DNA of 64,000 nt, taken from positions 1 through 64,000 of the IMG/VR virus record IMGVR_UViG_3300037297_000195, one strand, 5' to 3'. Position 1 is the stretch's first letter; the number at the start of each line of letters is the position of its first letter. Under the pieces are notes generated by a model. That model worked only from the letters and a program-made list of their open reading frames with translations. It did no database searches and was not told the DNA's origin. Below are positions 11,486 to 26,256 of the stretch, one piece after another. Origin of the DNA: a virus. Made by a program: the position numbers and the translations under genes.

Positions 11486-11970
11486 TGACTACTTATACGA
11501 GTAAACAAATTGGTGTTAGTTCGCACAATTCGAACAAAGAAGAAGCTTACGCCTATGAAGCGTTTTATCCGGGGCACCTGTTGGAATATGATGCCAATGG
11601 ATATTTCAAAAAGCACGCTACTGCTGGCGGGTCTATCGTGGCTCCTATGGTGGCTAAGGAAGATAGTTTACAAGGTAATGGTGTCGATACCGCTTGCACT
11701 GCCGCGAATCAGGCTCCGGCTTGGATGTGCCAAACTGGCGATATTTTCAACTTTCGTGTTAAGGATGGGGAAACAATTGCTATTGGAGATGAAGTCGAAA
11801 GCGCGGGGGATGGCACTATCCAGAAATATGTAGCTGATACGTTTTCTGGGGCTGAAGCTGTTACCGCTTATCCACTAAACATTTTGGGTGTAGCAATGAG
11901 CGCTTGCGATATGTCTGATAGCTCTGCCGCTGACCCGAGCCCGCCTTTTTGCGCGGTCAGAATTCGATAA
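11485..11970 (+). CDS. capsid decoration/cement protein candidate
   Basis: 161 aa, lying between the scaffold and major capsid genes. ATGA-type coupling. Assigned by position only. Confidence 0.4.
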   Translation: MTTYTSKQIGVSSHNSNKEEAYAYEAFYPGHLLEYDANGYFKKHATAGGSIVAPMVAKEDSLQGNGVDTACTAANQAPAWMCQTGDIFNFRVKDGETIAIGDEVESAGDGTIQKYVADTFSGAEAVTAYPLNILGVAMSACDMSDSSAADPSPPFCAVRIR

Positions 11971-11983
11971 GGAGGAACACATT

Positions 11984-13159
11984 ATGGCTGACCACGTAAT
12001 TGGTGCACAAATTGACAATACTCCGGCCGGATGGCATCCCGATGATGCCCCTCAGATCCATTATTTGGAGCCCAAAGAGGGAAATGATGGTAACACTACG
12101 TATGTTGCTCATGGGGAACCGGCTCATAAACTGTTAAATTCCGGCATGAATTTGAACGCCTTGCGTCCATATTTTGCCTGGAATAACAAAACCAAAAAAT
12201 ATGTTCCCGTTTGCAATATGGGAACACAGATTAATGCTGAAGGAAAAGTCGTTCCGAAACCGGTATTGGCTGCGAATGCTACTCTCCGGGAGGATGAATG
12301 GAAAACGATTGACCAAACTGTTCTTCAGGTATCCCGAAAACAGCTTGCTTTTTATCAGTCTTTGGTTGCTTCTGGCCTGACTTTCCCTTTGTCTGATGCC
12401 CTCGGAACCACTGTCTTAGGCTGGGACAAAATGCAGGACGATGACGGGGATGCCCGCCTGACCATGGAACCGGATATCCCGCCCTTGGAAGGCCGTGTAA
12501 CCTATGACAGGGAATACATTCCGATTCCCTTGGTCTGCAAAGGTTTTCGGCTTAATATCCGCGAATTGAACGCTTCCAGGCGTGGTGGAATGCCTCTGGA
12601 TACCGCCATTATGGCCGATGCTACCAGGAAAGTGACCGAACTTATCGAAAAGCTTTCCATTAATGGAACCAATGGCATTACTTATGGTGGTGGAACTCTT
12701 TACGGTATGCTGAACTATGATCACCGTGTTACCGGGACCCTAACTTCGGCATGGACGAACAGCTCCGCAAGAGATCCGCTTGCTGATGTCATTGCCATGA
12801 AGCAGGACAGCTTGGATATTTATCATAACGGACCATGGCGTATGTTCATTCCGACCGGTTATTCCACCGCTTTGGAAGAAGACTACACTTCGGGATATCC
12901 GAAATCGATCAGGAATCGTTTGCTTGAGGTTGAGGGCGTTAACTCTATCCAAACTTTGGATTATATGACCGCTGGCAATGTCGTTATGATGGAAATGGAT
13001 CAGAGGACCATTCGGATGATCGTGGGTTTTGAGCCCAAAACGATTGAGTGGACTTCCATGGGCGGAATGTCTTTCCATTACATGATTATGGCGATTATGG
13101 TCCCGAATCCCAGGGCTGATGCGAACAACCGAACCGGCATTATTCATTATAGTGCTTAG
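11984..13159 (+). CDS. major capsid protein (HK97 fold, encapsulin/Linocin-M18-like)
   Basis: LREDEWKTIDQTV..., IPIPLVCKGFRLNIRELNASRRGGMPLDTAIMADATRKV.E.IEK..ING matches the encapsulin-like capsid pattern. Strong AAGGAGG RBS and locally higher G+C. Confidence 0.85.
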   Translation: MADHVIGAQIDNTPAGWHPDDAPQIHYLEPKEGNDGNTTYVAHGEPAHKLLNSGMNLNALRPYFAWNNKTKKYVPVCNMGTQINAEGKVVPKPVLAANATLREDEWKTIDQTVLQVSRKQLAFYQSLVASGLTFPLSDALGTTVLGWDKMQDDDGDARLTMEPDIPPLEGRVTYDREYIPIPLVCKGFRLNIRELNASRRGGMPLDTAIMADATRKVTELIEKLSINGTNGITYGGGTLYGMLNYDHRVTGTLTSAWTNSSARDPLADVIAMKQDSLDIYHNGPWRMFIPTGYSTALEEDYTSGYPKSIRNRLLEVEGVNSIQTLDYMTAGNVVMMEMDQRTIRMIVGFEPKTIEWTSMGGMSFHYMIMAIMVPNPRADANNRTGIIHYSA

Positions 13160-13202: not shown

Positions 13203-13235
13203 CCTGTAACCATTATGTTGAATAGTGGTTACAGG
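13203..13235 (+). terminator. 10-bp stem-loop after capsid gene (attenuator/mRNA stabiliser)
   Basis: CCTGTAACCA (13203-13212) pairs with TGGTTACAGG (13226-13235). No clean U-tract follows. Confidence 0.35.
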
Positions 13236-13488
13236 ATTAACAAATAAAAAAGGTGATTGGGTGTATTTATCTTTTTTTGAAAAACAAATTCGGGCATTTT
13301 GTTCAAGCATCGTCGATGATTTTCCAGATGCCAGGATTAAAATAGTTGGAGTGGATTTCGAATTAACCGAAAATATGATTTTTACTAATTATAATAATAG
13401 TTTTTTTATTATAACCCATAAAAAGACAGGGAATATTTATATTAAACCATGTTTTGTTAATAATGATTGTTTAGAAGGAGATGATTAA
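13225..13488 (+). CDS. hypothetical protein
   Basis: The track's GTG start lies inside the hairpin. An in-frame GTG at 13261 after AAAGGTGA is an alternative start. Confidence 0.35.
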   Translation: MVTGLTNKKGDWVYLSFFEKQIRAFCSSIVDDFPDARIKIVGVDFELTENMIFTNYNNSFFIITHKKTGNIYIKPCFVNNDCLEGDD

Positions 13489-13864
13489 GATGCTTTGTAG
13501 ATTTAATGGTGGTAGGAGCGGGAAAGCGTCTCACAAAAAACCCAATGGTGAATTTGCTGTTATTGGCGACGAACTGGAATTAACCTCCAATCAATATGAG
13601 ATGTTCAAAGATCGGTTTACATTAATCGAACAAGACGTTTTCGAGGAAAAAGATCTGCCCTATTTTGGGGTAAAGGTTGGAACAAAATTTCATATTTTCC
13701 ATATCGAAACGGGGGAACAGCAGACAGACGTTCCGCAAACTCGAAAAGAGGTATTGGATTCATACCCTACAATTCAATTCTTTGCGCAAGATGACTGCCC
13801 ATATAAATTCGAACTGAAAGAAAAATCAACTGAAAGTAAATCCGGGATGACTCGGAAGAAATAG
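13481..13864 (+). CDS. hypothetical protein
   Basis: 127-aa ORF that overlaps the upstream ORF by 8 nt. Confidence 0.45.
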   Translation: MIKMLCRFNGGRSGKASHKKPNGEFAVIGDELELTSNQYEMFKDRFTLIEQDVFEEKDLPYFGVKVGTKFHIFHIETGEQQTDVPQTRKEVLDSYPTIQFFAQDDCPYKFELKEKSTESKSGMTRKK

Positions 13865-13871
13865 GTGTGTT

Positions 13872-14234
13872 ATGGAAGAAGGTATTTTGTCATTAGAAAT
13901 GGCGGGTGATGGCATTTTAAAAATTAACACGCCAACTTTTTCAGATGATATTAAAGAAGTGGTTTTTAATGATAAAAGATATCCCGTTTCACAAATGGAC
14001 AAATTAACATTGGTTATTGCTGTTGGCAATGTGATTTATTTTGATATTGTGTTTATTTCGGGGCCAAACAAGCTAATTAAAACCCCATTTATTTCTCATG
14101 ACATTCGTGAATTAATTGTTAATGAAAAAGACTATGAAATAAATGGTAAAAGAGTAAAGGCGATTGAACTTTATGCCGAAAAGGGAGCGTCGGTTTATTT
14201 AGGAATTGATTATCTTCCAGGGCCAATTATCTAA
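13872..14234 (+). CDS. hypothetical protein
   Basis: 120-aa ORF with a TAATG overlap to the first glycan-island gene. Confidence 0.45.
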   Translation: MEEGILSLEMAGDGILKINTPTFSDDIKEVVFNDKRYPVSQMDKLTLVIAVGNVIYFDIVFISGPNKLIKTPFISHDIRELIVNEKDYEINGKRVKAIELYAEKGASVYLGIDYLPGPII

Positions 14235-14941
14235 TGTGGAATATACCCAAAATTTGGGATTCTCCCGTCTGGATAATTGGTGGGGGGAGATCTCTAAAAG
14301 AGCAAGCAGGGATTGAATCCGACATCCCAGATAAGCATCGATTTGAGCTTGTCAACCGATTTCTAAGGCCAAGGTTGGAAGATAAAAGAGTGATCGGCCT
14401 TAATCGATCTTTATCCCTTGGAGATTGGATTGACATAGCCTATTTCGGGGATACCAGGTTTTTAGACTGGTATACGCAAGACATTTTTAATTTTAAAAAT
14501 TTAATTATTTCCTGTGCTATTTTTTTGAATAACCAAATGAACAATGTTAAAAAGGCTGGCATAAAACAGGTAACAAGAAGTCGATATAGAGGAATTGATT
14601 TAACCCGGCCAAGAAATGAGATCGGTTGGTTCGGAAATACTGGAGCAAGCGCTATACATTTAGCGCTTCTTTTGGGCGTAACCAAAATTTATCTACTTGG
14701 ATATGATGGATTTCCTAACCCGAAAAATATTAGAGATAATAATTGGTGGAGTCCATACCCGGATGGTTATGCTAAATCCGTGGAAGGTGCTGAAAAAACA
14801 TATAACGGGTTTAGAAAATCTTTTGATATTGTTGCTAAAGGGTTAACAAAATACAATGTTGAATGTATTAATTTAACTCCAAATACAAAAATAGAGGCAT
14901 TTCCGACTGGCGATTTAGAAGAGGAATTGGAAAAGTGTTAA
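14234..14941 (+). CDS. DUF115 (MptE/Maf)- / GT42 sialyltransferase-like glycosyltransferase candidate
   Basis: VWIIGGGRSLKE and GNTGASAIHLALLLGVTKIYLLGYDGF resemble the GNGPSL and A..LGY..IYL.G.D motifs of Cst-type GT42 / DUF115 enzymes. Confidence 0.45.
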   Translation: MWNIPKIWDSPVWIIGGGRSLKEQAGIESDIPDKHRFELVNRFLRPRLEDKRVIGLNRSLSLGDWIDIAYFGDTRFLDWYTQDIFNFKNLIISCAIFLNNQMNNVKKAGIKQVTRSRYRGIDLTRPRNEIGWFGNTGASAIHLALLLGVTKIYLLGYDGFPNPKNIRDNNWWSPYPDGYAKSVEGAEKTYNGFRKSFDIVAKGLTKYNVECINLTPNTKIEAFPTGDLEEELEKC

Positions 14942-15852
14942 ATTGGAAAGACAGAACAGTAATGGTTATCGGGGATATCATGGTAGATAGGTTTGTATAC
15001 GGCCATTCTGCCAGGTTATCCCCAGATGCTCCTGTCCCGGTTGTGGATAAAGGCTATGAGAGCTTAAGGCTTGGTGGCGCTGGCAATGTAGCCTATAATG
15101 TTCAAGCTCTTGGCGGCAAACCCATTTTAATTGGCGTTACTGGTAATGACTCGTGGGGTGATTTTGTTGATCAATTTTCATTAAATCCTGTAAAAGATTA
15201 TGGCAGAAAAACGCTTTTGAAAATGAGAATTATGTCTGATGGGCAACAAATTGTGAGGCTTGATTGTGGAGATGTTGATAATTTTCCAGAAGATATTAAA
15301 AACCAAATTAAAACGAGAATATTGGCCTTTAGTAATAATATTGATGCAATTATTATTTCTGATTATGGGAAAGGAGTTGTTACAGAAGAAACAATAACGG
15401 CAGTTAATGAAATTCGACAAGGCAAAAATATTCCGTTAATTATCGACCCTAAGCCGTTTAATATTCCCAAATATGGGTGCTGCCCCACGGCTATGATCCC
15501 AAATATTTACGAGTTACAGGCTATTGCCAATACTCAAAATACAGATTTAGCTGTTAAACAATTATTCGCGGCTACTAAATCAAAAAATGTGTTAGTAACA
15601 TGTGGCAAAAATGGGATGATCCTTTACCAGTCTCCTAAAGAAAAAATAGAGATTGATGCTCAACCAGTTAAGCCCTGTTTTGTGGGAGGGGCTGGTGACG
15701 TGGTGGCGGCGGTAATAGGGTTAGGTTTGGCTTCCGGTATGGACATTGAGAAGTGTTCAAGAATAGCGAATTTGGCGGCAAGCATAGCGATTCAGTATGA
15801 TGAAACATGTGTTTGTCATTTGGAAGAACTTTTTGAAAAAATGGAGAGGTGA
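14935..15852 (+). CDS. pfkB-family sugar kinase, HldE/RfaE domain-I-like (heptose-7-phosphate kinase type)
   Basis: VMVIGDIMVDRFVYGHSARLSPDAPVPVV...LRLGGAGNVAYNVQALGG matches the RfaE kinase-domain N-terminus. C-terminal GGAGDVVAA is a pfkB motif. Confidence 0.8.
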   Translation: MLNWKDRTVMVIGDIMVDRFVYGHSARLSPDAPVPVVDKGYESLRLGGAGNVAYNVQALGGKPILIGVTGNDSWGDFVDQFSLNPVKDYGRKTLLKMRIMSDGQQIVRLDCGDVDNFPEDIKNQIKTRILAFSNNIDAIIISDYGKGVVTEETITAVNEIRQGKNIPLIIDPKPFNIPKYGCCPTAMIPNIYELQAIANTQNTDLAVKQLFAATKSKNVLVTCGKNGMILYQSPKEKIEIDAQPVKPCFVGGAGDVVAAVIGLGLASGMDIEKCSRIANLAASIAIQYDETCVCHLEELFEKMER

Positions 15853-15856
15853 TTAG

Positions 15857-16870
15857 GTGAAAGCGGCAGTATTAACAAAACAAAATAGCCCATTAAAATT
15901 AATGGATTTGATGCTCCCCCCTAAACTTGCTCCAGGGCAGGTGATCGTTAAGGTCGAATATTCTGCCATATGTGGAAAACAAATTAATGAAATTAACGGA
16001 AATGAGGGGCCGGATAAATATCTACCCCATTTGTTAGGCCATGAAGGATCTGGATTCGTTTTTGAAGTCGGTCCCGGAGTAACAAAAGTTAAACCTGGCG
16101 ATTATGTGGTTTTGCATTGGCGAAAGGGAAGTGGGATTGATGCGAAGCCGCCCAAATATAAGGATATGAATTCAGATATGGTAATTGGGGCTGGTCCTAT
16201 TGCCACGTTTGCGGATATGGCCGTTATTAGTGAAAATAGGATGACTAAAATCCCATTCTATTTCGAGAATAGGCTTGATGAGGCTTGTCTTTTGGGTTGT
16301 GGTGTTACTACTGGTTTGGGATTGATAAACAATGAAGCGAAATTGAAAATAGGCCAGTCTATTTTGATTATTGGTTGCGGTGGTGTTGGATTAAATGTAA
16401 TCCAAGGCGCTAAAATGGTTTCTGCCGGATTTATTGCCGTTTCGGATATTAATGAAGACCGGCTAAAGAAAGCAGAATGTTTTGGGGCTGATTGTTTAAT
16501 TGATAATGTTTTGCATGTTGATTCATCGTTTAATGTGGTGGTTGATTGCACTGGTAACCCTGAAATTATTAGCCATGCTTTTGGTTTGGTCCTTCCTGGT
16601 GGGAAATTAGTATTAGTTGGGCAACCTATTGATGGATTACCGGTCACATTTCCGTATATGAACCAGCATTATAAAGGAAAAATGCTAATGGATTCTCAGG
16701 GGGGGTTAACGAATCCCGATAAAGATATTCCAAGATATATTAATTTGGCATATATGGATAGGCTAAACCTTAAGGATCAGATTGCTAAAGTATTCCCATT
16801 GAATGATATCAATTTGGCCATTGAAGCACACTCCAAGGTGGCTGGAAAGGTTCTGGTGAGAATGGCATGA
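15857..16870 (+). CDS. zinc-type medium-chain (alcohol/polyol) dehydrogenase
   Basis: GHEGSGFV zinc-ligand motif, GDYV, and the Rossmann segment ILIIGCGGVGLN. Confidence 0.8.
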   Translation: MKAAVLTKQNSPLKLMDLMLPPKLAPGQVIVKVEYSAICGKQINEINGNEGPDKYLPHLLGHEGSGFVFEVGPGVTKVKPGDYVVLHWRKGSGIDAKPPKYKDMNSDMVIGAGPIATFADMAVISENRMTKIPFYFENRLDEACLLGCGVTTGLGLINNEAKLKIGQSILIIGCGGVGLNVIQGAKMVSAGFIAVSDINEDRLKKAECFGADCLIDNVLHVDSSFNVVVDCTGNPEIISHAFGLVLPGGKLVLVGQPIDGLPVTFPYMNQHYKGKMLMDSQGGLTNPDKDIPRYINLAYMDRLNLKDQIAKVFPLNDINLAIEAHSKVAGKVLVRMA

Positions 16871-17625
16871 GCTATATATACGATTTATGGCAGAGATTAC
16901 GGCCCTATGATTGTGGCCTTGAAAAAATGAGGCTTGGTCGTGAAGGGGATGGCGGTTATGTCGTTTCCCGTGAAGCCTTAATGGCTTCCTCCCATTTAAT
17001 TTCATTCGGCATTGGTGATGATTGGTCGTTTGAAATGGATGCAATCAGAGCAAATCCAGATATTCAAGTGTTTGCTTATGACAAAGAAGACAATTTTGAA
17101 CTGAGAAGCCAAAGCCGGATTAAGTTTTTCAAGTCTGATGTGGTGAGAGATTTACCTTATGCCCCTGAAAATTCAACGCTTAAAATTGATATAGAGGGAG
17201 GGGAATGGGAGTATTTAGACAATATAGACCTTGGTTTTTTTGTTAATCAATTGATAATCGAATTTCATTTGTTTGATGTGGGAGTCCCAAATAGGGTTTT
17301 AACTAAATATTTCCATAATCTTTATTCTAATGTTGTGAAAAATTTTAACAATAATCTTTTCGAAAATTACGAAATGACTATTGGGGAAATACTTAATAAT
17401 TTTGTTCTTTTTCATATTCATCCTAATAATTCACTTAAGCTGGTTGATGTTAACGGGTATCTGTTCCCACCATTAATCGAGTGTTCATTCATCAATAAGA
17501 AATTTGTTAATGATAAAATTCCAATGAGTTTTGACCATTTCCCGTTTGATGGTTTGGATTTTCCGAACAAAATAGACCGATCAGACATTAAACTCCAGTT
17601 TGCAGTGAGGCAAGATAATGAGTGA
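16867..17625 (+). CDS. FkbM / Methyltransf_22-like methyltransferase candidate
   Basis: The GREGDGGYVV, SFGIGDDWSFE and LKIDIEGGEWEYL motifs are characteristic of that family. Confidence 0.55.
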   Translation: MSYIYDLWQRLRPYDCGLEKMRLGREGDGGYVVSREALMASSHLISFGIGDDWSFEMDAIRANPDIQVFAYDKEDNFELRSQSRIKFFKSDVVRDLPYAPENSTLKIDIEGGEWEYLDNIDLGFFVNQLIIEFHLFDVGVPNRVLTKYFHNLYSNVVKNFNNNLFENYEMTIGEILNNFVLFHIHPNNSLKLVDVNGYLFPPLIECSFINKKFVNDKIPMSFDHFPFDGLDFPNKIDRSDIKLQFAVRQDNE

Positions 17626-18331
17626 TTTAACAGAAAGAGGAAAACAGATACGGCGGGATACGATAGAATTAGCCCTTGCCAATGGCGGGTATCATTGGGG
17701 TGGCTCTTTTTCGTGTGTTGAGATATTAATAGCGCTATTCGATTATGTAATGCGTGAAGATGATATGTTCATCCTGTCCAAAGGGCATTCATGCTGGCCG
17801 TATTATGTTTTATTAAGAGAAAAAGGGTTTACCCCCAAACTAACAGGTCATCCATCAATGGGAGATGGCGTTCCGTTTTCTACTGGGAGTTTAGGCCATG
17901 GATTGCCTTTAGGTATTGGAGTTGCTTTAGCAAAAAAGATAAGGGGTGAGCCTGGCCGAGTTTTTGTCCTGGTTGGGGATGGCGAAATTCAGGAAGGGAC
18001 ATTTTGGGAAAGTTTATTAATAGCAAGACAACAAGATTTAAAAAATATTATTTGCATAATTGATAATAATAAAATTCAGGGATCTGGAAAAAATATTCAT
18101 TTTGTTGGGTCGAAAGTTTTGATGGATATGCGATGGAGATATCAAAAAATAGAAGATGGGCACAGTATAGGAGAGCTTAGTAATTTGGATTGTGATTTAT
18201 CTGTTCCTTTGATTGTTAATGCCCAAACCGTTAAAGGAAAAGGCGTTTCATTTATGGAGAACAAGCCCGAATGGCATTCTAAATGGTTGGATAAAGATCA
18301 CAAGGAAAAGGCTATGGGGGAATTGAGATGA
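17618..18331 (+). CDS. transketolase, N-terminal (TPP-binding) subunit
   Basis: Motifs GGHWGGSFS, LSKGH, GSLGHGLPLGIGVALA and VLVGDGEIQEGTFWES. Confidence 0.9.
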   Translation: MSDLTERGKQIRRDTIELALANGGYHWGGSFSCVEILIALFDYVMREDDMFILSKGHSCWPYYVLLREKGFTPKLTGHPSMGDGVPFSTGSLGHGLPLGIGVALAKKIRGEPGRVFVLVGDGEIQEGTFWESLLIARQQDLKNIICIIDNNKIQGSGKNIHFVGSKVLMDMRWRYQKIEDGHSIGELSNLDCDLSVPLIVNAQTVKGKGVSFMENKPEWHSKWLDKDHKEKAMGELR

Positions 18332-18810
18332 GAGAAATATTTGGGAAAACCATAGTCAGATTAGCCGAAAAAGATGAACGAATTGTGCTAATAACTTGCG
18401 ACGTCCATCAAAATATGGATGAATTTAAAATTAAATTTCCAGATAGGTTTTTTGACTTCGGCTTAACCGAACAGGCAACGGTTGGTATCTGTGCCGGCCT
18501 TGCCTCACAAGGATTAAAGCCGGTATTCTATAGCATAACTCCATTTGTTTTGGAAAGGCCGTTTGAGCAAATTAAAATTGATATAGACGAAATGAATCTG
18601 CCGGTCATGCTGATTGGATATGATGATTACCCTACTCATGGCCCTACACACAGAGCGTTAAATCCGAAAGGGCTTGTTTCCCTATTCAAGAATATTGATG
18701 GATTCTTTCCGAACAATAGCAAAGAGGCAGAAAAGGCCATGTTAGATGCTTATCTAATGGATGGGCCTTCGTTCATCCATTTGAAAAAAGACGGATTGCC
18801 GTTTATTTAA
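18328..18810 (+). CDS. transketolase pyrimidine-binding subunit, lacking the usual C-terminal domain
   Basis: FFDFGLTEQATVGICAGLASQGLKPVFYS and GPTH are Pyr-domain motifs. The ORF ends at 160 aa (...GPSFIHLKKD), where split-transketolase B subunits normally continue for more than 100 aa. Confidence 0.75.
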   Translation: MREIFGKTIVRLAEKDERIVLITCDVHQNMDEFKIKFPDRFFDFGLTEQATVGICAGLASQGLKPVFYSITPFVLERPFEQIKIDIDEMNLPVMLIGYDDYPTHGPTHRALNPKGLVSLFKNIDGFFPNNSKEAEKAMLDAYLMDGPSFIHLKKDGLPFI

Positions 18811-18823
18811 GGAGATTTGGGAG

Positions 18824-19426
18824 ATGACAAAAACAGTTTTGATTACAGGCGCAAGTGGTGGTTTAGGAAAAGAATTGGCTAATGTTTTTTACCTTGACGA
18901 TAAAAAGTGGAATTTGATTTTACATTATAACGAACACGAACCACATATCCCCATTTCTAATAGGGTTACGTGGTGGAAACATGACTCGTTAAATCCAAGT
19001 GAGATTCCCAAATTTATTGATGATAAAAATATTGATTTATTGATTAATTGTGCGGGAATTTATTCCGGTCATTTATACGATGTGATGGAGGTCAATTTTT
19101 ATTTTCCTGTTTTTTTAATTGAAAAGTTAAAGAATATCAAAAAGATTATCAATATAAACTCTTTGGCTGGATTGCAGGCAGGGAAAGGGGAAAAAGAATA
19201 TGCCGCTTCCAAGCAAGCTTTTAAGGGATATTGTCAAGCCTTGAAATTGGATGGATTCGAAATTACTGACGCATTTCTTGGTGCCATGAAAACCAAAATG
19301 ACAAAACACAGATCGGACTGGAATGAATTAATGAATCCATCTGAGGTGGCCGACATTATATACAATTTAGCAGAAAAGAAACAAACTGCTTATATTCCTG
19401 AAATTACAATAAGGCGGAAATCATAA
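18824..19426 (+). CDS. short-chain dehydrogenase/reductase (SDR)
   Basis: VLITGASGGLGKELA (TGxxxGxG), NCAG, and the catalytic YAASKQA (YxxxK). Confidence 0.85.
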   Translation: MTKTVLITGASGGLGKELANVFYLDDKKWNLILHYNEHEPHIPISNRVTWWKHDSLNPSEIPKFIDDKNIDLLINCAGIYSGHLYDVMEVNFYFPVFLIEKLKNIKKIININSLAGLQAGKGEKEYAASKQAFKGYCQALKLDGFEITDAFLGAMKTKMTKHRSDWNELMNPSEVADIIYNLAEKKQTAYIPEITIRRKS

Positions 19427-21861
19427 TGAAGTGTATATGCGGTGGAACTAAATACAAACAAGAAAAAAGAGATGGATTTATTGTTAATTCTTATGGGGAG
19501 TCTATCCCCACTGAAATTGATTTGGGTAAATGTTTAAAATGTGGGGTTTTGAGGCAGATAGATTTGCCATTTTCAAATGAAAATGAATATGACGATTATT
19601 ATAAAAATGAATATCCTCCAACAAAAAGGGGGTTTATCAATAATAATTATCAATCTGATTTGGTGGCAGGGGAAAGACTTTTTAATAGGTATAACGATAA
19701 ATATGGAATAAGCAAATCTAAAAGAATGCTGGATATAGGATGCGGAAGCGGGTCTTTTGTTGATGTTTGTAATAAAAAAGGCATAGAGGCATATGGATGT
19801 GAATTAGGAAAATATTATCATACTCCAAAAGACAATAAAATATATTTTAGTAAATTTGAAAATGTTAATTTCCCTACAGATTATGCCGATACTATTTTTT
19901 GTAGCGATGTGATAGAGCATGTCCTTGATCCTGTTAATTTTCTAAATGAGGTTTTTAGGGTTTTGGACCAAAAGGGGAGATTGTTTGTTGAATTCCCTCA
20001 TTTTTATCATGATATTGGGAAGGCACATTGGAAAAAGATAGAACACATTTGGTATTTTACAAAAGATGAATTTATAGGGCTGTTAAGAAGAATTGGATTT
20101 GTAAATGTAAAATGTGATGAATTAATTTCTAAAGTTGATGCTAAATTATTGTTTATAGCTGAAAAGCCTATTCAAAAAAGAACGAAAATATTATTTCCTC
20201 CTGGTATGGGAGATTCGATGTGGAGCATTATAAAACTCGAATCTTTTCTTAAAAGGAATAAAATAAAATCCCCAGTTGATGCCTACATTGTTTGCCCAAA
20301 ATCAAGAGAACATAATGGGCATGAAAGGTCTGTCCCGTTTTTGGAGATGTTCCCTTTTGTTAATAGTACAGGGGTTGTTTACCAATTTGATAGAGCTAAT
20401 CCCGAACATAGAAAAACATGGGAATCTGCTTATGGGAAACCAGATAAAACAATATTTAAAAATATTTTAGACTGTGATTATTTTGTTTCGTATAATGGAT
20501 ACAATATATCATATAAAACATTAGATAAAAGTGATCAGTATGATTGTAATTGGCATCCGAAACGTTTTATTTCGTTAGAGGAAGAGCGATTTAAAAGCGA
20601 TTGTATTAAAAAGTATGGTGATTATTTAGTGCTATTTTTTCCTCTATATGGAATGTATAAATCATGGATTGATAAAATTCCTACTCATGAATTAGCAAAT
20701 ATTATCAATAGAATAGTGGATTATACAAAATTAACTCCAGTTATTGCCGGCAAAGAGTGGGATAGAGATACCCCTGAAATTAGGAGATTTATAAAGCTTG
20801 TTAATGGTGCTATTGATTTAACTGGCAAAACAACAGTTGAACAGGTTTTTGGATTAATTCGTGGTGCTAAAGGGATGATTGCTTATCCCTGTGGATTGCC
20901 CATGATGGCCACTGTTTTAGGCCAAAAAGTGTTAATGATTTGGGATGAGCATTGGGAGTATCAAGGGCACAAAAGACCATTCGCCTATAATTTTGCTAAA
21001 AATTGTTGTCCTCCAGAAACAGTTGGAAAAACATATAAAATAGAAATGATAGACGGATTAACGCCAGAAAAATTTGTTTTGAGCGCTATTAATTTATTAA
21101 CTGGTGAAAATATTGATAAAATAGATAAGGGGGTTGTTTTTGAGAAGCCGATTTTATTATCTAAATCAGAAAAAATTGATACAAAACAGGAAACGAAAAA
21201 ACAGTCTGAAAATAAAAAATATTCTGAATTGCCGCATACTGAAATTGATATTTATTGCGTCCTAAAATCAGGTGGCGTCTATACTGAAAAGGATGTTGCG
21301 ATATTAGAAAGCATGTTAAATCGGAATATCACCCACGAATATAATTTCCATGTCTTATCTGATATGAACGTAAAAAACAAAATCACCTTGGAAAATAACT
21401 GGCCTGGTTGGTGGTCTAAAGTCGAGCTTTTTAAACATCAAGGACCGGCATTATATTTTGATCTCGATACGGTTATATTAAAAAATATTGATCGATTGGT
21501 AGTGGAAACAAGCAAGCTCAAAAAAGGCGAAATGAGGATGTTGATCCCATTTAATCCACGCCGTAGAGCTAATGGGAATTGGGCATCCGGCATTATGGCT
21601 TGGTATGCTGATTTAATGCCTCTGATGGCTCTTACAAGCGCTCAGATTGATGATTTAAGGATGGACCAAACCTATATCGAACAAGAAGCTAAACGAATAG
21701 GGATTACTATTAAGCCAATTAATAATTGGGTGAAAATATACTCTCAAAAATGGCATTGCAAGAATGGGCATCCACCTAAAAATGCAGATATAGTTTGCTT
21801 CCATGGTAAAATAAAACCGAAACATGTTAGCGAAAAATGGGTTTTGGAGAATTACAGATGA
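19426..21861 (+). CDS. three-module enzyme: SAM methyltransferase + GT9 (heptosyltransferase-like) + GT-A DxD glycosyltransferase
   Basis: N-terminal CxxG...CxxC ribbon and MLDIGCGSGSF (SAM motif I). The middle has ILFPPGMGDS... and LTGKTTVEQVFGLIRGAKGMIAYPCGLPMMATVLGQKVLMIW (GT9 C-terminal pattern). The C-terminus has WPGWWSKVELF...LYFDLDTVILKNID (DxD). Confidence 0.6.
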   Translation: MKCICGGTKYKQEKRDGFIVNSYGESIPTEIDLGKCLKCGVLRQIDLPFSNENEYDDYYKNEYPPTKRGFINNNYQSDLVAGERLFNRYNDKYGISKSKRMLDIGCGSGSFVDVCNKKGIEAYGCELGKYYHTPKDNKIYFSKFENVNFPTDYADTIFCSDVIEHVLDPVNFLNEVFRVLDQKGRLFVEFPHFYHDIGKAHWKKIEHIWYFTKDEFIGLLRRIGFVNVKCDELISKVDAKLLFIAEKPIQKRTKILFPPGMGDSMWSIIKLESFLKRNKIKSPVDAYIVCPKSREHNGHERSVPFLEMFPFVNSTGVVYQFDRANPEHRKTWESAYGKPDKTIFKNILDCDYFVSYNGYNISYKTLDKSDQYDCNWHPKRFISLEEERFKSDCIKKYGDYLVLFFPLYGMYKSWIDKIPTHELANIINRIVDYTKLTPVIAGKEWDRDTPEIRRFIKLVNGAIDLTGKTTVEQVFGLIRGAKGMIAYPCGLPMMATVLGQKVLMIWDEHWEYQGHKRPFAYNFAKNCCPPETVGKTYKIEMIDGLTPEKFVLSAINLLTGENIDKIDKGVVFEKPILLSKSEKIDTKQETKKQSENKKYSELPHTEIDIYCVLKSGGVYTEKDVAILESMLNRNITHEYNFHVLSDMNVKNKITLENNWPGWWSKVELFKHQGPALYFDLDTVILKNIDRLVVETSKLKKGEMRMLIPFNPRRRANGNWASGIMAWYADLMPLMALTSAQIDDLRMDQTYIEQEAKRIGITIKPINNWVKIYSQKWHCKNGHPPKNADIVCFHGKIKPKHVSEKWVLENYR

Positions 21862-22541
21862 CCGATCCGATTTTGATAACTGGCCCGGCCCGTTCTGGCA
21901 CGTCAATGACGGCTGGTATTTTTCATATTTGTGGTGCGTGGGGAGGGGATATGACCGGTCCTACATCATATAATAAAAAAGGCCAGTTTGAGAATTCGGT
22001 GATTAGGGATAGCGTTAAAAAACTATTATCGGATATGGGATTGGATCCTCTTTGTCAGAATCCATTGCCGGATAATACAGATATGGAAATTCTATCATGC
22101 CGGTATTTGTGGTGGCGGAATAGGGTTAATGTAATTATTACAGAGCAAGGCTATAATGATCAATCTCCATGGTTTTACAAAGGCGCGAAAATGGTTTTGA
22201 TGTGGAAATTGTGGGCGGATGCCTTTCCGAATGCCAAGTGGATTTATGTCAATAGAGATATTGATGGCATCATAAATTCCTGCTTGAAAACGGGATTTAT
22301 GAGAGCATATAATACGAGAGATGGTTGGAGAAAGTGGGTTGAAAAACATTTACAAAGAAAGGAGGAAATGAGGCAAGCGGGCATCAAAATAATAGATACA
22401 TATTCTGAAGAAATCATTCGGGGGGATTTTGACAGAATTAAATCTATAATTGGTGATTTTGGATTAAATTGGAATGATAAATTAATTAATGGGTTTGTGG
22501 AACCAAAGTTTTGGGGAGGTGGAAAACATGGCCAGAAATAA
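21858..22541 (+). CDS. sulfotransferase-family protein candidate
   Basis: The ATG is in an ATGA overlap with the upstream stop. ILITGPARSGTSMTA resembles a 5'-PSB loop (RSGT[ST]), and WIYVNRDIDGIINS resembles the 3'-PB R-D...S motif. Confidence 0.55.
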   Translation: MTDPILITGPARSGTSMTAGIFHICGAWGGDMTGPTSYNKKGQFENSVIRDSVKKLLSDMGLDPLCQNPLPDNTDMEILSCRYLWWRNRVNVIITEQGYNDQSPWFYKGAKMVLMWKLWADAFPNAKWIYVNRDIDGIINSCLKTGFMRAYNTRDGWRKWVEKHLQRKEEMRQAGIKIIDTYSEEIIRGDFDRIKSIIGDFGLNWNDKLINGFVEPKFWGGGKHGQK

Positions 22542-22848
22542 TAACGGGAATATTTCCGGCTGGGTAAAATGGGCGGTTGGATTAACGTTAACTTTTATGC
22601 TTGCGGTTGGCGGCTATGCTTTTGCAATGATCGAGTCAAAAGTTAGCAAAGAGCGTTATTTAATTGATCAGGCGAGGGTTTGCGATCAGATTAATAATGA
22701 AAAAGTCTTGAATGAAAAAAAAATTGATCGGATAGAAAGAAAAATTGATTTTATGCAGTCCGATATCAATCAAATTATGATAAAATTAGGGCAGATTGAA
22801 GTTAGGATGGGCAATACAAGTGAGGTAATTTATGGCCAGAACGACTGA
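22528..22848 (+). CDS. single-pass membrane / coiled-coil protein
   Basis: ATG 22528 lies 7 nt after GGGGAGGTGG. WVKWAVGLTLTFMLAVGGYAFAMI is a TM helix, followed by a heptad region. Confidence 0.5.
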   Translation: MARNNNGNISGWVKWAVGLTLTFMLAVGGYAFAMIESKVSKERYLIDQARVCDQINNEKVLNEKKIDRIERKIDFMQSDINQIMIKLGQIEVRMGNTSEVIYGQND

Positions 22849-24503: not shown

Positions 24504-25568
24504 TTGGACACAACTAACAAAGTAATTAAAGTGTCTTTGAATGGAAGTGATAGTTCTCCAACCTGGAGAGCTTTACCTGCTCCCTCAGGGAGCTTTAGCA
24601 AAAATGGAGAAACGCTTGACGATTCCATTTTTGGCGCTAATTTTGCCAGCATCCAAATGGGGTTAATTGATTGTTCCATATCCAGTTCGGCCCTTTATCG
24701 TGGGTTTGCCGGTTATGTGGCAACGATTAAAAAAAGTGGAACGTCAACGAGTTTTACAACTGAGGCGTGTAGTCTTGTTTCCGGGTATACTTATCAGATT
24801 GATGATACGACAAAACGGTGTTGGGATTGGACGAAAACATTTACGGTATATAATGATGCCGTGGAAGTAAGCTCATCTCTTTATACCATCGATTTTATGC
24901 ACGGAAAAATCACCTTTTCCGGTGCTGGAATCCCGGCTTCTGCGGATGCCATTACGGTGTCTGGTTATTATTTGCCGCTAACGACTTTTAGCTCCGCTAA
25001 CGACATTTCCATGGGCATGACTGCCAATACAACGGATCAAACTTCATTTGCATCTGCCCAGGCCAATGGTGGGTATATGTCGTATGGCTATGGTCTTAAA
25101 ACTGTTAATTTGTCTCTATCTGGTTTTTATGAGACGTCTACTGGCATTTTTGCATTGCTTGAAGCAAGAGAGCCTTTTGTAATTGAGATATGCCCAGATG
25201 GAAATGCTAAGTCGATTGCCCGTGGTGTATTTATGGTTACAAGTCAAGATCAGGATGGAGCGGTCGGGGATACCGAAACCGAGAGCGTTGAATTCTCATC
25301 TTATGTCGGGGAAGATGTCAATGGGGATGCTATCACTCCGTTTAATTGGCATCATGAGAGTGATACAACTCTTTCTCAAGCTATCCAAGATGTCCTTTAC
25401 GCTTGGGAGAATAATGCTTATCTGTGGGCTCAATATTTGCCGGATGGAACAAATGGGGCTCAGGTTAAGACATTGGTAACTGATTGTTCTTTTTCAACGG
25501 GTGTTAGCGCCATGGCCACTTATGCGGTTAATCTGCAAGGGACGGATGGTATTACTGAATTATCTTAA
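24504..25568 (+). CDS. major tail (tube) protein candidate
   Basis: 354 aa. TTG start 7 nt after AGGAGG. Immediately upstream of the chaperone pair and the tape measure. Ser/Thr/Gly-rich beta-type sequence. Confidence 0.55.
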   Translation: MDTTNKVIKVSLNGSDSSPTWRALPAPSGSFSKNGETLDDSIFGANFASIQMGLIDCSISSSALYRGFAGYVATIKKSGTSTSFTTEACSLVSGYTYQIDDTTKRCWDWTKTFTVYNDAVEVSSSLYTIDFMHGKITFSGAGIPASADAITVSGYYLPLTTFSSANDISMGMTANTTDQTSFASAQANGGYMSYGYGLKTVNLSLSGFYETSTGIFALLEAREPFVIEICPDGNAKSIARGVFMVTSQDQDGAVGDTETESVEFSSYVGEDVNGDAITPFNWHHESDTTLSQAIQDVLYAWENNAYLWAQYLPDGTNGAQVKTLVTDCSFSTGVSAMATYAVNLQGTDGITELS

Positions 25569-25589: not shown

Positions 25590-25841
25590 ATGAAATTAAT
25601 GGCGTTAAGGGTTAAATATTTTGACGGCGAGATTGAAGGATTTATATGCGCTCCGTTTGGAGATAGCAAATATATTTCCAGAAATGATGGATATATTTCT
25701 GCTATTATTGCCGAGACAGGGGAGGAATTAAGCATTCCGGAAATGGCTGTTAAAAATATTCGAGTCAAATTGCATGAGGTAGAAACAGAAAAATCTGAAG
25801 AAAAAGGAGATGATGAAAATGTCGAACAGTATGAATCTTAG
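25590..25841 (+). CDS. hypothetical protein (tail module)
   Basis: 83-aa ORF with an acidic C-terminus. Its end overlaps the next ORF. Confidence 0.4.
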   Translation: MKLMALRVKYFDGEIEGFICAPFGDSKYISRNDGYISAIIAETGEELSIPEMAVKNIRVKLHEVETEKSEEKGDDENVEQYES

Positions 25842-26256
25842 AGATAAAATTAGGTCTTTAACTGTTGCGTCTAAAAAGCACTTTAAAAGTGAATTATTTT
25901 CGTATGCCGATGGCGGAGAAGAAATAAAAGTTGAATTCCGGGAGCTTACGAGAAAAAGGCTTTCGCAATTAATGAAAAAGGCGACAACAAGAGAGACAAA
26001 CAATGAAGGGAAAGAAATAGATAGAGTCGATAATGATAAATTTATGTATTACGCCATTATCGAAATGACATTTATTCCCGAAACAGACGAGCAGGTTTTT
26101 GAGGAAGGGGATATAGAATCGTTTGAAATGCAACCGGCATCGAATGACAATTTTATCACTCTATTTAGCAAACAAATTAACAAAATGATTGGTGAGGACA
26201 CTGCGGAGCAAGCGGAAAAAAACTCAAAAGAGACGGCGAACTCCGTCTCACAATAG
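25810..26256 (+). CDS. tail assembly chaperone (gpG-like)
   Basis: Last ORF before the tape measure, with an acidic C-terminus. Carries the slippery site A_AAA_AAC 31 nt before its stop. Confidence 0.65.
   Translation: MMKMSNSMNLRDKIRSLTVASKKHFKSELFSYADGGEEIKVEFRELTRKRLSQLMKKATTRETNNEGKEIDRVDNDKFMYYAIIEMTFIPETDEQVFEEGDIESFEMQPASNDNFITLFSKQINKMIGEDTAEQAEKNSKETANSVSQ

Follow-up and report, generated by a model that had tools for sequence, protein, structure and literature searches.

Nine co-directional plus-strand ORFs fill positions 14234-22541 of the window (the whole 64,000-nucleotide stretch of viral DNA analysed), with the major capsid gene on one side and neck genes on the other, and the cassette recurs at the identical site in at least four further 60-70-kb uncultured siphophage contigs (L002, L012, L014 and L015). 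Conserved synteny makes glycosylation of virion proteins the best-supported reading of this arrangement, and we consider it about evenly balanced whether the cassette, expressed late, makes a higher-carbon sugar and attaches it to proteins of the particle. The analysis shows how the genes are ordered, which families and folds they belong to, how far they and their synteny are conserved, and where they are fused; the reaction order, sugar identity, nucleotide donor and acceptor described below are inferences.

Gene order and conservation of the cassette

An earlier note on this DNA had placed a nine-gene island between the capsid and head-tail genes, and the ORF listing of the window matches it exactly. 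Within the island, neighbouring genes overlap by 1-25 nt or stand 4 or 13 nt apart, and the tight coupling that had been described extends to the 5' end, where TAATG (14232-14236) joins the first island gene to the ORF before it. The last island gene probably begins in reality at the ATGA of 21858-21861. G+C content is 0.366 in the island and in the whole window, so that, as claimed earlier, a composition break is absent, and no enrichment of promoter-like or terminator-like sites was found in the 11-27 kb region. The surrounding genes are as follows.

4575-6110: large terminase, upstream of the island
6591-8030: portal, upstream of the island
Between the portal and decoration genes, upstream of the island: minor head protein, then protease/scaffold
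11485-11970: decoration protein, upstream of the island
11984-13159, plus strand: HK97-type major capsid protein, candidate acceptor (tblastn 37% identity to Brevundimonas phage major capsid proteins; PHROG 771/264)
Between the major capsid gene and the island: three small unassigned ORFs
22489-22848, plus strand: 119-aa ORF with one hydrophobic helix (membrane ORF), between the island and the neck genes; homologue in L014
23607-24080 and 24077-24490: neck/connector genes (PHROG matches)
24504-25568: 354-aa ORF, presumed tail tube from position and counterparts in related phages
25810-26256: tail assembly chaperone, downstream of the island
26441-30613: 1390-aa ORF, presumed tape measure from position and counterparts in related phages

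The earlier note passed over the 119-aa ORF, for which profile searches gave no family match.

The same gene set in the same place in L002, L012, L014 and L015 indicates that the arrangement is not due to chance. The major capsid proteins of the carriers share just 35-58% identity, and the island proteins are conserved at least as well as the structural proteins. L012 lacks the kinase, which therefore does not belong to the invariant core. The nearest cultured relative, Brevundimonas phage MaInes, has the same head-to-tail gene order and lacks the cassette, which was not found in any deposited phage genome but is shared by a family of uncultured phages. The kinase/dehydrogenase/transketolase/SDR module is also present in unrelated phage lineages: PfkB-ADH-I4-TK-SDR is seen again in a 327-kb jumbo phage contig, and ADH, TK-N and PfkB are likewise found in a phage whose portal is of the T4 type, together with a single 915-aa protein that combines GT9, FkbM methyltransferase and SDR.

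Putative enzymes of sugar synthesis

14935..15852, plus strand: I2, 305 aa, PfkB-family sugar kinase, HldA / HldE-domain-I type (PF00294, 111 bits)
15857..16870, plus strand: I3, 337 aa, Zn-dependent medium-chain dehydrogenase (ADH_N plus ADH_zinc_N)
16867..17625, plus strand: I4, 252 aa, conserved transketolase partner, possibly an FkbM/Methyltransf_22-like methyltransferase (weak, sub-threshold Pfam)
17618..18331, plus strand: I5, 237 aa, transketolase PP (ThDP diphosphate-binding) subunit, shortened (Transketolase_N)
18328..18810, plus strand: I6, 160 aa, transketolase Pyr subunit without the TK_C domain (Transket_pyr; 6yaj, E 4e-17)
18824..19426, plus strand: I7, 200 aa, classical-type short-chain dehydrogenase/reductase, SDR (adh_short, 58 bits)

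Profile or fold evidence upholds eight of the nine family calls made earlier, the exception being FkbM/Methyltransf_22 for I4, where PF13383 (E 0.0022) and PF05050 (E 0.017) both fall under the gathering score; I4 is possibly an FkbM-like methyltransferase. Homologues of I4 share a cassette with the transketolase N gene in L002, L012, L014 and L009, and L003 holds a truncated copy. The I2 kinase carries the GAGD and N-x-x-E motifs and scores 249.5 bits against TIGR02198 (rfaE_dom_I), below the curated HldE cut-off of 345 bits. Its closest solved structure is B. cenocepacia HldA (4e84, E 9e-30; runner-up 1e-8). HldA is a heptose-7-P kinase known as an LPS precursor enzyme. In line with the earlier claim, the window's larger ORFs revealed no GmhA, no GmhB and no nucleotidyltransferase, so that the pathway would be incomplete without the host.

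The nearest NCBIfam models of I3 are thiol-dependent formaldehyde dehydrogenase and class III ADH, and the PDB agrees, which places it closest to class III or primary-alcohol ADHs. Catalytic Cys39 and His62 and a GCGGVG NAD motif are present, whereas the structural-zinc Cys cluster is missing, the region of that lobe having no Cys at all. I7 has the TGxxxGxG and YxxxK motifs, and the SDR gene adjoins the transketolase genes, or lies one gene off, in L003, L007, L009, L012 and L014.

The transketolase is a minimal, split form. The closest solved relative of I5, which has the ThDP motif GDG...NN, is the split transketolase 6yak (E 3e-39), and metagenomes hold thousands of I5 homologues of about 240 aa. 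Aligned with canonical C subunits of 300-345 aa, I6 keeps Arg2, the cofactor Glu and the PTH His, and has lost the Ser of DADLSxS, the Asp of the ED pair and the entire C-terminal domain. Canonical transketolase (a C subunit of ~300-345 aa or a fused enzyme) was present at 75 of 76 loci in species-representative genomes; the 240+160-aa form was found on viral contigs. The minimal enzyme is apparently virus-specific, so that a role of supplying sedoheptulose-7-P is oversimplified. To our knowledge every host already has a transketolase. The earlier statement that transketolase makes sedoheptulose-7-P is doubtful as worded, as the acceptor-recognising Asp is among the losses along with the C-terminal domain.

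These features also bear on whether the genes re-route host pentose-phosphate and heptose metabolism for replication as auxiliary metabolic genes, with the transferases as unrelated passengers. Virome surveys do class transketolase and sugar kinases in this way, which counts for such a role, and the family assignments in themselves are compatible with it. However, this transketolase has neither the C-terminal domain nor the acceptor-binding Asp, is always accompanied by an SDR, an oxidoreductase and either methyltransferases or glycosyltransferases, and is sometimes fused to them, and lies in the late structural operon rather than among early or nucleotide-metabolism genes. We regard metabolic re-routing as highly improbable.

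Predicted transferases and tailoring enzymes

14234..14941, plus strand: I1, 235 aa, sialyltransferase-like (GT42/GT29 fold) transferase of the MptE-like/DUF115 superfamily (homologues, profile, fold)
19426-21861, plus strand: I8, 811 aa, methyltransferase + GT9-like + GT8-like fusion (Pfam, homologues, AlphaFold, profiles)
19426..20175, plus strand: I8 domain 1 (aa 1-250), 4-Cys zinc ribbon plus class I SAM methyltransferase (Methyltransf_23, 65.6 bits)
20185..21105, plus strand: I8 domain 2 (aa 254-560), GT-B glycosyltransferase, GT9-like (homologues and Foldseek)
21244..21861, plus strand: I8 domain 3 (aa 607-811, plus stop codon), GT-A glycosyltransferase, GT8-like, with DLD and FHG motifs (homologues and profiles)
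21837..22541, plus strand: I9, 234 aa, PAPS-type sulfotransferase (PF13469, 29.2 bits against a cut-off of 27)

The I1 protein itself has no sequence match in Pfam, NCBIfam or PDB. An exhaustive profile search returned 2843 cluster representatives; PF01973 is matched by 15 of 42 sampled homologues (best E 3e-18), and the profile finds MptE (E 0.0018) and Cst-II (E about 0.3) in the PDB. Cst-II is also the top match of the AlphaFold model (pLDDT 95; E 3e-5, TM 0.44). Position 172 is Trp here versus His in 54 of 60 homologues, and I1 of this phage, having lost this near-invariant residue, may be inactive. Catalytic motifs are intact in the kinase, ADH, SDR, transketolase, sulfotransferase and both glycosyltransferase domains of I8.

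In I8 domain 1 (AlphaFold pLDDT 90), zinc-ribbon Cys3, 5, 36 and 39 are conserved, and among its fold matches are the zinc-ribbon sugar C3-methyltransferases TcaB9, KijD1 and MtmC (E about 1e-9). For the GT9-like and GT-A domains, the protein itself gives no Pfam match above threshold. PF01075 gives no match at E < 0.01, is precomputed for about 40% of I8 homologues and is weak in L012; by Foldseek, domain 2 matches E. coli heptosyltransferase II (1psw, E 2e-8, TM(target) 0.53). A disordered linker (aa 569-604) precedes domain 3, for which PF04488 is weak, PF01501 is found in 5 of 16 homologues, and the profile detects glycogenin (E 0.003) and Skp1 alpha-galactosyltransferase (0.006) in the PDB, with Asp77, Asp79 and His191 conserved in the alignment. 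I9, with homologues in L012, L014 and L015, carries PARSGTS (5'-PSB-like) and RDxDxxxxS (3'-PB-like) and probably starts at ATG 21858, coupled through the ATGA.

Viruses are reported to encode glycosyltransferases by which DNA is hypermodified with a variety of glycans (bioRxiv 10.1101/2023.12.21.572611), and late expression would match the time of packaging, so that the sugar might be placed on phage DNA bases shortly before or during packaging, evading restriction. The island and the larger ORFs of the replication module yielded no match to a hydroxymethylase, TET/JBP or other base-activating enzyme, however, and the island lies in the head-neck block, distant from the replication genes. We know of no DNA glycosyltransferases of GT9, GT8 or GT42 type, which also counts against DNA as acceptor, and base glycosylation seems very unlikely.

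Proposed pathway and acceptor

The biosynthetic half (I2 kinase, I3 Zn-ADH, I4, I5+I6 minimal transketolase and I7 SDR) would yield an unusual higher-carbon (heptose-type) or branched sugar. Two-carbon ketol transfer by the ThDP enzyme would create a C-C bond, and the two dehydrogenases would fix carbonyl position and oxidation state, either by converting ketose-phosphate via alditol-phosphate to aldose-phosphate, bypassing GmhA, or by first oxidising to an aldehyde acceptor and later reducing the keto group of the transketolase product. Phosphorylation of the anomeric position would fall to the HldA-like kinase, and nucleotide activation to host enzymes. The transfer and tailoring half (sialyltransferase-like I1; methyltransferase, GT9-like and GT8-like I8; sulfotransferase I9) would then assemble a short methylated, probably sulfated glycan in the cytoplasm, most likely on a virion protein (capsid, decoration or tail tube) during particle assembly. 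Some members of all three transferase families glycosylate cytoplasmic proteins directly, examples being the GT9 autotransporter heptosyltransferases TibC/Aah, the DUF115 Maf flagellin transferases, and GT8 glycogenin and Skp1 galactosyltransferase.

The main rival, possible but distinctly less probable, is that the host envelope is remodelled, the LPS/LOS core being extended or capped with heptose, hexose and an ulosonic acid, methylated and sulfated, whether as late receptor masking that spares progeny from debris and already infected cells or as serotype conversion. The best-known members of the families with GT9-like, GT8-like and GT42-like folds and of the HldA-like kinases build LPS/LOS inner and outer core (WaaC/WaaF, WaaJ/LgtC and Cst-II), the host of the nearest cultured relative is a Gram-negative alphaproteobacterium, and dependence on host GmhA, GmhB and HldC suits a heptose-containing host. 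Seroconversion genes of temperate phages, however, are normally prophage-expressed and located close to the integration/immunity region, rather than being translationally coupled inside a head-neck operon, and the scanned ORFs of the window included no recognised integrase. The capsid-neck position is maintained between phages at 35% capsid identity, a comparable set (GT4, GT9-FkbM-SDR fusion, ADH, TK-N, PfkB) in an unrelated phage is again beside terminase and portal, and membrane anchors are not apparent in I1 or I8.

Counted against virion glycosylation were the capsid tail, the LPS-type families, the loss of the I1 His, the failure to find a nucleotidyltransferase, GmhA or GmhB in the larger ORFs, the kinase score, the lack of the kinase in L012 and the weak family assignment of I4. 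The major capsid protein here ends GIIHYSA, without the Ser/Thr-rich tail present in mycobacteriophage acceptors.

The heptose theme proposed earlier gains support, short of proof, from co-occurrence of the enzymes and from gene fusions, namely GT9-FkbM-SDR and an I8 homologue in which MT-GT9 is fused to a radical SAM/SPASM domain. Radical SAM/SPASM proteins also stand in place of the ADH beside transketolase in L003, L007 and L008, the last of which has a nucleotidyltransferase-PfkB fusion.

The island and its place in phage genomes

The nine plus-strand ORFs lying between the capsid and neck genes of the window are genuine and conserved, and they represent a variant of phage glycan cassette that had not been described before. 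The ORF listing of the window places them exactly where the earlier note had put them, at 14234-22541; neighbours are tightly packed, with overlaps of 1-25 nt or gaps of 4 or 13 nt, and there is no G+C break, the island value of 0.366 being the same as that of the window. The translational coupling ascribed to the island is also read in the sequence, as TAATG at 14232-14236 and ATGA at 21858-21861; the latter junction suggests that the last gene, I9, probably starts at 21858 rather than 21837. Judged by gene content and order, the surroundings correspond to a predicted siphovirus-type late operon.

4575-6110: large terminase, upstream of the island
6591-8030: portal, upstream (minor head protein and protease/scaffold genes are also upstream)
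11485-11970: decoration protein, upstream
11984-13159, plus strand: HK97-type major capsid protein, upstream, followed by three small unassigned ORFs (13225-14234)
14234-14941, plus strand: I1, sialyltransferase-like
14935-15852, plus strand: I2, PfkB kinase
15857-16870, plus strand: I3, zinc alcohol dehydrogenase (ADH)
16867-17625, plus strand: I4, possible methyltransferase
17618-18331 and 18328-18810, plus strand: I5 and I6, transketolase N (TK-N/PP) and Pyr subunits
18824-19426, plus strand: I7, SDR
19426-21861, plus strand: I8, 811-aa methyltransferase, GT9-like and GT8-like fusion
21837-22541, plus strand: I9, sulfotransferase
22489-22848, plus strand: 119-aa membrane ORF between the island and the neck/connector genes
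24504-25568: putative tail tube, 354-aa ORF, assigned by position and counterparts in related phages, without a family match
25810-26256: tail assembly chaperone, downstream, after the neck/connector genes
26441-30613: putative tape measure, 1390-aa ORF, assigned on the same basis as the tail tube and without a family match

Scans for promoter-like and terminator-like sites revealed no enrichment and are uninformative. The 119-aa ORF contains a single hydrophobic helix (WVKWAVGLTLTFMLAVGGYAFAMI), and the stretch after it resembles a coiled coil on visual inspection; a homologue occupies the matching place in the uncultured phage contig L014, and no family match was obtained.

DNA near-identical to the island was not detected by megablast in 50,697 phage records. 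In tblastn searches of deposited phages, only the GT-A domain at the C-terminus of I8 was matched, by jumbo phages of Xanthomonas and Stenotrophomonas and by three further records, and TK-N was matched only at 36% identity or less, in short unannotated "phage" records, one Salmonella record and MAG-like Acinetobacter records. Comparison at the protein level locates the island at the matching site in at least four other uncultured phage contigs, L012 (63 kb), L014 (68.5 kb), L015 (59.8 kb) and L002, in the common order major capsid protein, small ORF(s), I1 and the remainder of the island, followed, where the contigs continue, by neck, tail terminator, tube and tape measure genes. Capsid identity to the window is 35-58% in these contigs and the island enzymes are equally or better conserved, which argues that the island is an old resident of the lineage, not a recent insertion. 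The same head-to-tail order is observed in the nearest cultured relative by capsid (37%), the Brevundimonas phage MaInes, from which the island is absent.

Across relatives the core consists of I1, the ADH, the ThDP enzyme, the SDR and I8, and other content varies. L015 encodes its ThDP enzyme as one protein of 401 aa, L012 has no PfkB kinase, and I4 and the sulfotransferase are frequent. At L002:4989-5966 the cassette includes a DUF3326 protein (E 2e-73), and its recovered part lacks a PfkB kinase, an instance of modular variation. The I8 architecture recurs in 69 protein clusters, several of them on 58-70-kb contigs that are probably whole genomes.

Related modules occur in other genomic settings. 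A 327-kb jumbo-phage contig encodes PfkB, ADH, I4, TK-N, a methyltransferase, the Pyr subunit and an SDR in that order, neighboured by genes for GT1, GT2 and GT11 proteins, for an extended SDR of the epimerase/dehydratase family and for a DegT aminotransferase. In a phage with a T4-type portal and terminase, at L004:2927-5674 (also L005 and L006), a 915-aa GT9-FkbM methyltransferase-SDR fusion is followed by Zn-ADH, TK-N and PfkB; the L004 set includes a GT4 protein and lies directly upstream of the terminase and portal genes, with no separate Pyr subunit seen there. One I8 homologue joins the methyltransferase-GT9 portion to a radical SAM/SPASM domain, and in three further viral contigs (L003, L007 and L008) radical SAM/SPASM proteins adjoin the transketolase at the place taken by the ADH in the window. 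In L008, a 134-kb contig, such genes and a minimal transketolase adjoin a 499-aa fusion (7417-8916) of an N-terminal cytidylyltransferase-like and a C-terminal PfkB domain, the reverse of the HldE domain order. These fusions and radical SAM/ADH substitutions argue for a portable biosynthetic module in which oxidoreductases, ThDP enzyme, kinase and GT9-type transferase would serve one pathway, and, by analogy, for oxidation of an alcohol to a carbonyl by the oxidoreductase beside the transketolase. Alcohol-to-carbonyl oxidation is the activity of BtrN-type and anSME-type radical SAM/SPASM dehydrogenases.

Predicted activities of the encoded enzymes

Family and fold evidence, gene by gene, bears out most of the motif-level gene calls made in the earlier note, the FkbM-type call for I4 being the one that stays sub-threshold. 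I4 falls below the gathering scores for FkbM/Methyltransf_21-22, reaching 18.1 bits against a cut-off of 22.4 and 15.7 bits against one of 22.7, and even a weak FkbM/Methyltransf match is found in only 1-2 of 6 members of its family. I2 aligns over its full length with TIGR02198, the HldE kinase domain, which is its best model by far at 249.5 bits (E 4e-74) and short of the curated equivalog cut-off of 345 bits. PF00294 is matched at 111 bits, the GAGD catalytic and NxxE motifs are visible, and the nearest solved structure is HldA (4e84, E 9e-30; next best 1.5e-8), all indicating by sequence comparison a PfkB kinase of HldA-like type. NCBIfam models and PDB matches identify I3 as a zinc medium-chain dehydrogenase nearest to the class III and primary-alcohol ADHs, and inspection of the sequence shows a structural-zinc lobe devoid of cysteines; a TarJ-like ribitol/arabinitol-phosphate role was rejected, as polyol-phosphate dehydrogenases are more distant. 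I7 is a classical SDR by Pfam.

Enzymes of canonical heptose activation were also sought. GmhA, GmhB and an HldC/HldE-II adenylyltransferase are absent from the island and from 20 larger ORFs elsewhere in the window, and the HldD epimerase was not found in island family searches or among the larger ORFs.

I5 and I6 encode a split transketolase, I5 supplying the PP half and I6 the Pyr half (PF00456 and PF02779), with the GDG...NN ThDP motif and the cofactor-activating Glu present, and their nearest relatives are the subunits of the split transketolase of Carboxydothermus hydrogenoformans (6yak, E 3e-39; 6yaj, 4e-17). They share with this enzyme and with the canonical split forms of bacteria and archaea the two-gene organisation, ThDP motif, cofactor Glu and catalytic His residues. 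However, the viral N subunit is ∼35 aa shorter, and the second subunit ends after 160 aa instead of ∼300-345 aa and is devoid of the TK_C domain. None of the viral Pyr subunits aligned has a TK_C domain or either of two residues that contact sugar phosphate, namely the DADLSxS Ser and the Asp belonging to the ED pair; what they do retain is the N-terminal Arg, the cofactor Glu, a catalytic His and, at the final Arg/phosphate-binding site, a basic residue. In a GTDB scan of species-representative genomes, 75 of 76 transketolase loci have the canonical form (C subunits of ∼300-345 aa, or fused); the sole 248+158-aa pair lies on a 26-kb contig binned as Woesearchaeota, with an SDR nearby. As the scan relied on six exact peptide patterns, absence of a cellular source is not proven by it.

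To our knowledge every cell already makes sedoheptulose-7-P, so that a need for more of this precursor would hardly account for the retention of a minimal transketolase. A role as mere supplier of this compound was set aside in view of the missing domain and residues and the fixed partnership with SDR and oxidoreductase. Metabolic reprogramming is in our estimation very improbable. If transketolases of this type do serve glycan synthesis, many virome transketolase "auxiliary metabolic genes" would be glycan-synthesis genes rather than agents of pentose-phosphate reprogramming, and the annotation of the abundant viral "transketolase" genes in metagenomes would have to change. Phosphonate synthesis was rejected, since a PEP mutase is lacking and the domains are arranged as in transketolase.

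I1 itself gave no match in direct Pfam, NCBIfam or PDB sequence searches, and a word-indexed homologue search returned only 3 matches; the family, comprising 2843 cluster representatives, becomes visible only through exhaustive profile search. PF01973 (MptE-like/DUF115) is matched by 15 of 42 sampled homologues, and BFVD matches carry the names MptE-like or DUF115. The model (pLDDT 95) is most similar in fold to the GT42 sialyltransferase Cst-II (E 3e-5) and then to ST8SiaIII (E 6e-4), indicating a predicted sialyltransferase-type fold and GT42/DUF115 membership on that basis. The region of codon 172 reads NWW in the window against the conserved HWH of the family, His172 being shared by 54 of 60 homologues, the two closest among them; the family His is a possible catalytic base and may correspond to the catalytic His188 of Cst-II. 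The window I1 may be inactive or may have changed chemistry.

The I8 model (pLDDT 90) has four parts, namely a zinc ribbon with methyltransferase, a GT-B domain, a disordered linker and a GT-A domain. The first combines a 4-Cys zinc ribbon with a SAM methyltransferase resembling the sugar C3-methyltransferases TcaB9, KijD1 and MtmC. The GT-B domain matches heptosyltransferase II (1psw, E 2e-8, TM(target) 0.53), the sole glycosyltransferase among the 50 structural matches listed for I8, the others being methyltransferases and reductase domains. PF01075 is precomputed for ∼40% of full-length I8 homologues, is weak or faint in those of L012 and L015, and is not reported for the window I8 at E < 0.01. 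By its model the GT-B fold is most similar to the WaaC/WaaF heptosyltransferases, and ADP-heptose would be its candidate donor. The GT-A domain conserves DLD and FHG motifs, which are aligned in its match to glycogenin (E 0.003); Skp1 galactosyltransferase follows (0.006). PF01501 (GT8) is detected in 5 of 16 GT-A homologues, with E of at least 8e-4, and is not matched by the window I8. I9 scores 29.2 bits against PF13469 (Sulfotransfer_3; cut-off 27) and contains 5'-PSB (PARSGTS) and 3'-PB (RDIDGIINS) motifs, which by sequence places it in the PAPS-dependent sulfotransferase family.

Candidate pathway, known systems and the glycan acceptor

In the proposed pathway, the ThDP enzyme would build the carbon skeleton by ketol transfer, and two orders of the redox steps would be compatible with the enzyme classes. 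In one, the SDR would reduce a ketose-phosphate at C2 and the primary-alcohol ADH would oxidise C1, giving an aldose-phosphate without GmhA; in the other, the ADH or radical SAM enzyme would make an aldehyde or keto acceptor that the transketolase extends or branches, and the SDR would reduce the new ketone in YerE/YerF-like fashion. Either would yield a heptose-type or branched higher sugar, which the HldA-like kinase would phosphorylate at O1. Nucleotide activation would be completed by host enzymes, since a nucleotidyltransferase, GmhA and GmhB were not found among the larger ORFs of the window. Three residues at most would next be joined into a glycan by the GT9-like and GT8-like activities of I8 and the sialyltransferase-like activity of I1. 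The methyltransferase domain of I8 and the sulfotransferase I9, and possibly also I4, would tailor it; we infer these assembly and tailoring steps from the predicted activities.

Known systems share parts of this scheme. The ADP-L-glycero-beta-D-manno-heptose system comprises GmhA, HldA/HldE, GmhB, HldC and HldD, the GT9 heptosyltransferases WaaC/WaaF and the protein heptosyltransferases TibC/Aah. The window resembles it in combining an HldA-like kinase with a GT9-like GT-B domain. However, the canonical pathway has no role for a transketolase, Zn-ADH or short SDR, which belong to the conserved core of the cassette, and the kinase is missing from L012. By sequence criteria the island falls outside the canonical ADP-heptose pathway, in that its kinase does not reach the curated cut-off and three of the four core enzymes could not be detected in the island or among the larger ORFs.

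ThDP enzymes also act in branched-chain sugar synthesis, as in YerE/YerF of yersiniose and the E1-like AviB1/B2 and AlmDI/DII. The logic of YerE/YerF is that of I5/I6 and I7, a ThDP enzyme lengthening an oxidised sugar by two carbons and an NAD(P)H ketoreductase acting directly after it. The lineages differ, YerE being an acetolactate-synthase-type flavoenzyme and AviB1/B2 and AlmDI/DII being of pyruvate-dehydrogenase E1 type, whereas the window enzyme is of transketolase lineage, and unlike yersiniose-type systems the island has no NDP-hexose 4,6-dehydratase.

The closest functional system is the virion glycosylation cassette of mycobacteriophages. Che8 and Myrna were reportedly described with such cassettes by Freeman et al. 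in 2023. As in Corndog (Cluster O, gp35-38), whose virion structural operon contains genes for an O-methyltransferase and for several glycosyltransferases, glycosyltransferase and methyltransferase genes lie inside the late virion operon of the window, an arrangement conserved in its relatives. The Corndog-type genes are expressed with the structural genes and their products are not themselves virion components (PMC4351075), and subunits of the capsid and tail tube are the reported targets of the mycobacteriophage cassettes (PMC11600133). Those cassettes contain transferases only and draw on host nucleotide sugars, whereas the window adds five to six sugar-building genes (kinase, ADH, minimal transketolase, SDR, I4) and a sulfotransferase. 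Its transferase families (DUF115/GT42-like, GT9-like and GT8-like) are different, the cassette lies between capsid and neck rather than portal and protease genes, and the host is probably Gram-negative, unlike those of mycobacteriophages. The sugar-synthesis half, the sulfotransferase and the transferase families are thus new with respect to the mycobacteriophage cassettes.

The transferase half is also present in a cultured phage, the phiCbK-like giant siphophage CcrColossus of Caulobacter.

98832-103385 of NC_019406.1: gp126, I1 family; gp129, NDP-sugar transferase; gp130, Methyltransf_23; gp131, GT9 (PF01075, 33 bits)

CcrColossus gp126, annotated alpha-2,3-sialyltransferase, belongs to the I1 family (hmmsearch E 1e-37), and gp126-gp131 have the same predicted activity set as I1 and I8 but as separate genes. 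The set lies directly after the tail genes and before the lysis cassette, whereas the window island lies between capsid and neck genes, and it is devoid of kinase, ADH, transketolase, SDR and sulfotransferase. No homology of the CcrColossus GT9, methyltransferase and GT-A proteins to I8 was detected with the I8 profile. As phiCbK-like phages of Caulobacter are cultured and genetically tractable, they offer an experimental entry point. Jumbo Brevundimonas phages also encode I1 homologues. Literature searches covering transketolase in glycan clusters, transketolase cassettes of phages and virion glycosylation in phiCbK yielded no paper on the island or on a minimal viral transketolase.

Virion proteins are the favoured candidate acceptor of the glycan, a reading that we consider about as likely as not. 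This reading is supported by the conserved, translationally coupled capsid-neck position, by analogous sets beside head or tail genes of unrelated phages and by the precedent of mycobacteriophage virion-operon glycosyltransferases (PMC11600133, PMC4351075). Against it, the window capsid protein shows no Ser/Thr-rich C-terminal acceptor tail, unlike the mycobacteriophage system, and the capsid alignment reveals no obvious glycosylation tail and does not single out an acceptor; the possible inactivity of I1 resulting from the His to Trp replacement was weighed in the same direction. All three transferase families include enzymes that directly glycosylate cytoplasmic proteins (TibC/Aah; Maf; glycogenin or Skp1 transferases), TibC and Aah being GT9 enzymes that O-heptosylate proteins in the cytoplasm. 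The same three families are standard LPS/LOS core enzymes, which counts against the virion reading, and remodelling of the host envelope would be the corresponding alternative, one we consider unlikely in view of the position of the genes. DNA glycosylation, in which DNA would be the acceptor, has only a slight probability.

The heptose and virion glycosylation operon proposed in the earlier note is plausible and stands in part, its gene calls being largely upheld and its virion function partly supported; glycan, donor and acceptor are all inferred. A more specific proposal, which we advance as tentative and rather improbable in its entirety, is a virus-owned, previously undescribed higher-carbon sugar route in which a virus-specific minimal transketolase (240 + 160 aa), a primary-alcohol dehydrogenase (or, in other lineages, a radical-SAM one) and an SDR would bypass GmhA and feed a GT9-type transferase; in the phage family of the window, methylation and sulfation would be added to a product carried in O-linkage by proteins of the capsid or tail. 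Glycosylated phage particles are documented mainly for mycobacteriophages, in which the glycans use host sugars and blunt antibody recognition. If virion glycosylation holds true for the island, together with synthesis of its own exotic sugar, glycan coats would be broader and chemically more inventive than thought, in widespread uncultured, probably Gram-negative-infecting siphophages, with a bearing on phage stability, adsorption, defence evasion and immunogenicity, and a sulfated product would be without precedent among the glycans of phage particles. The minimal transketolase, the three-domain methyltransferase/GT9/GT8 enzyme and the sulfotransferase would also provide an enzyme set for glyco-engineering.

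Other features of the window

The sign of the GC skew flips at ∼4000 and ∼35500, the positions at which gene orientation switches, a plus-strand late block of 4.5-35.5 kb being flanked on both sides by minus-strand early/replication blocks. The major capsid gene has the highest G+C of its region (0.475, GC3 0.495, against 0.366 for the window), possibly a sign of codon adaptation in the gene with the strongest expression. No tRNAs were found in a scan of the window. A 209-aa ORF with a DUF3310 C-terminus (8381-9010, plus strand), labelled 'nucleotide kinase' in PHROGs, is inserted between the portal and minor head protein genes. On the minus strand, 48866-52198 encodes a 1110-aa alpha subunit of DNA polymerase III, in which PHP, NTPase and finger domains are joined to a C-terminal uracil-DNA-glycosylase-superfamily domain (aa 959-1093), an unusual fusion. 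Also on the minus strand, in the replication module, a B12-binding/radical SAM protein (54276-55433) adjoins an N6/N4 DNA methyltransferase (53229-54266), and these neighbours may constitute a DNA or nucleotide modification pair.
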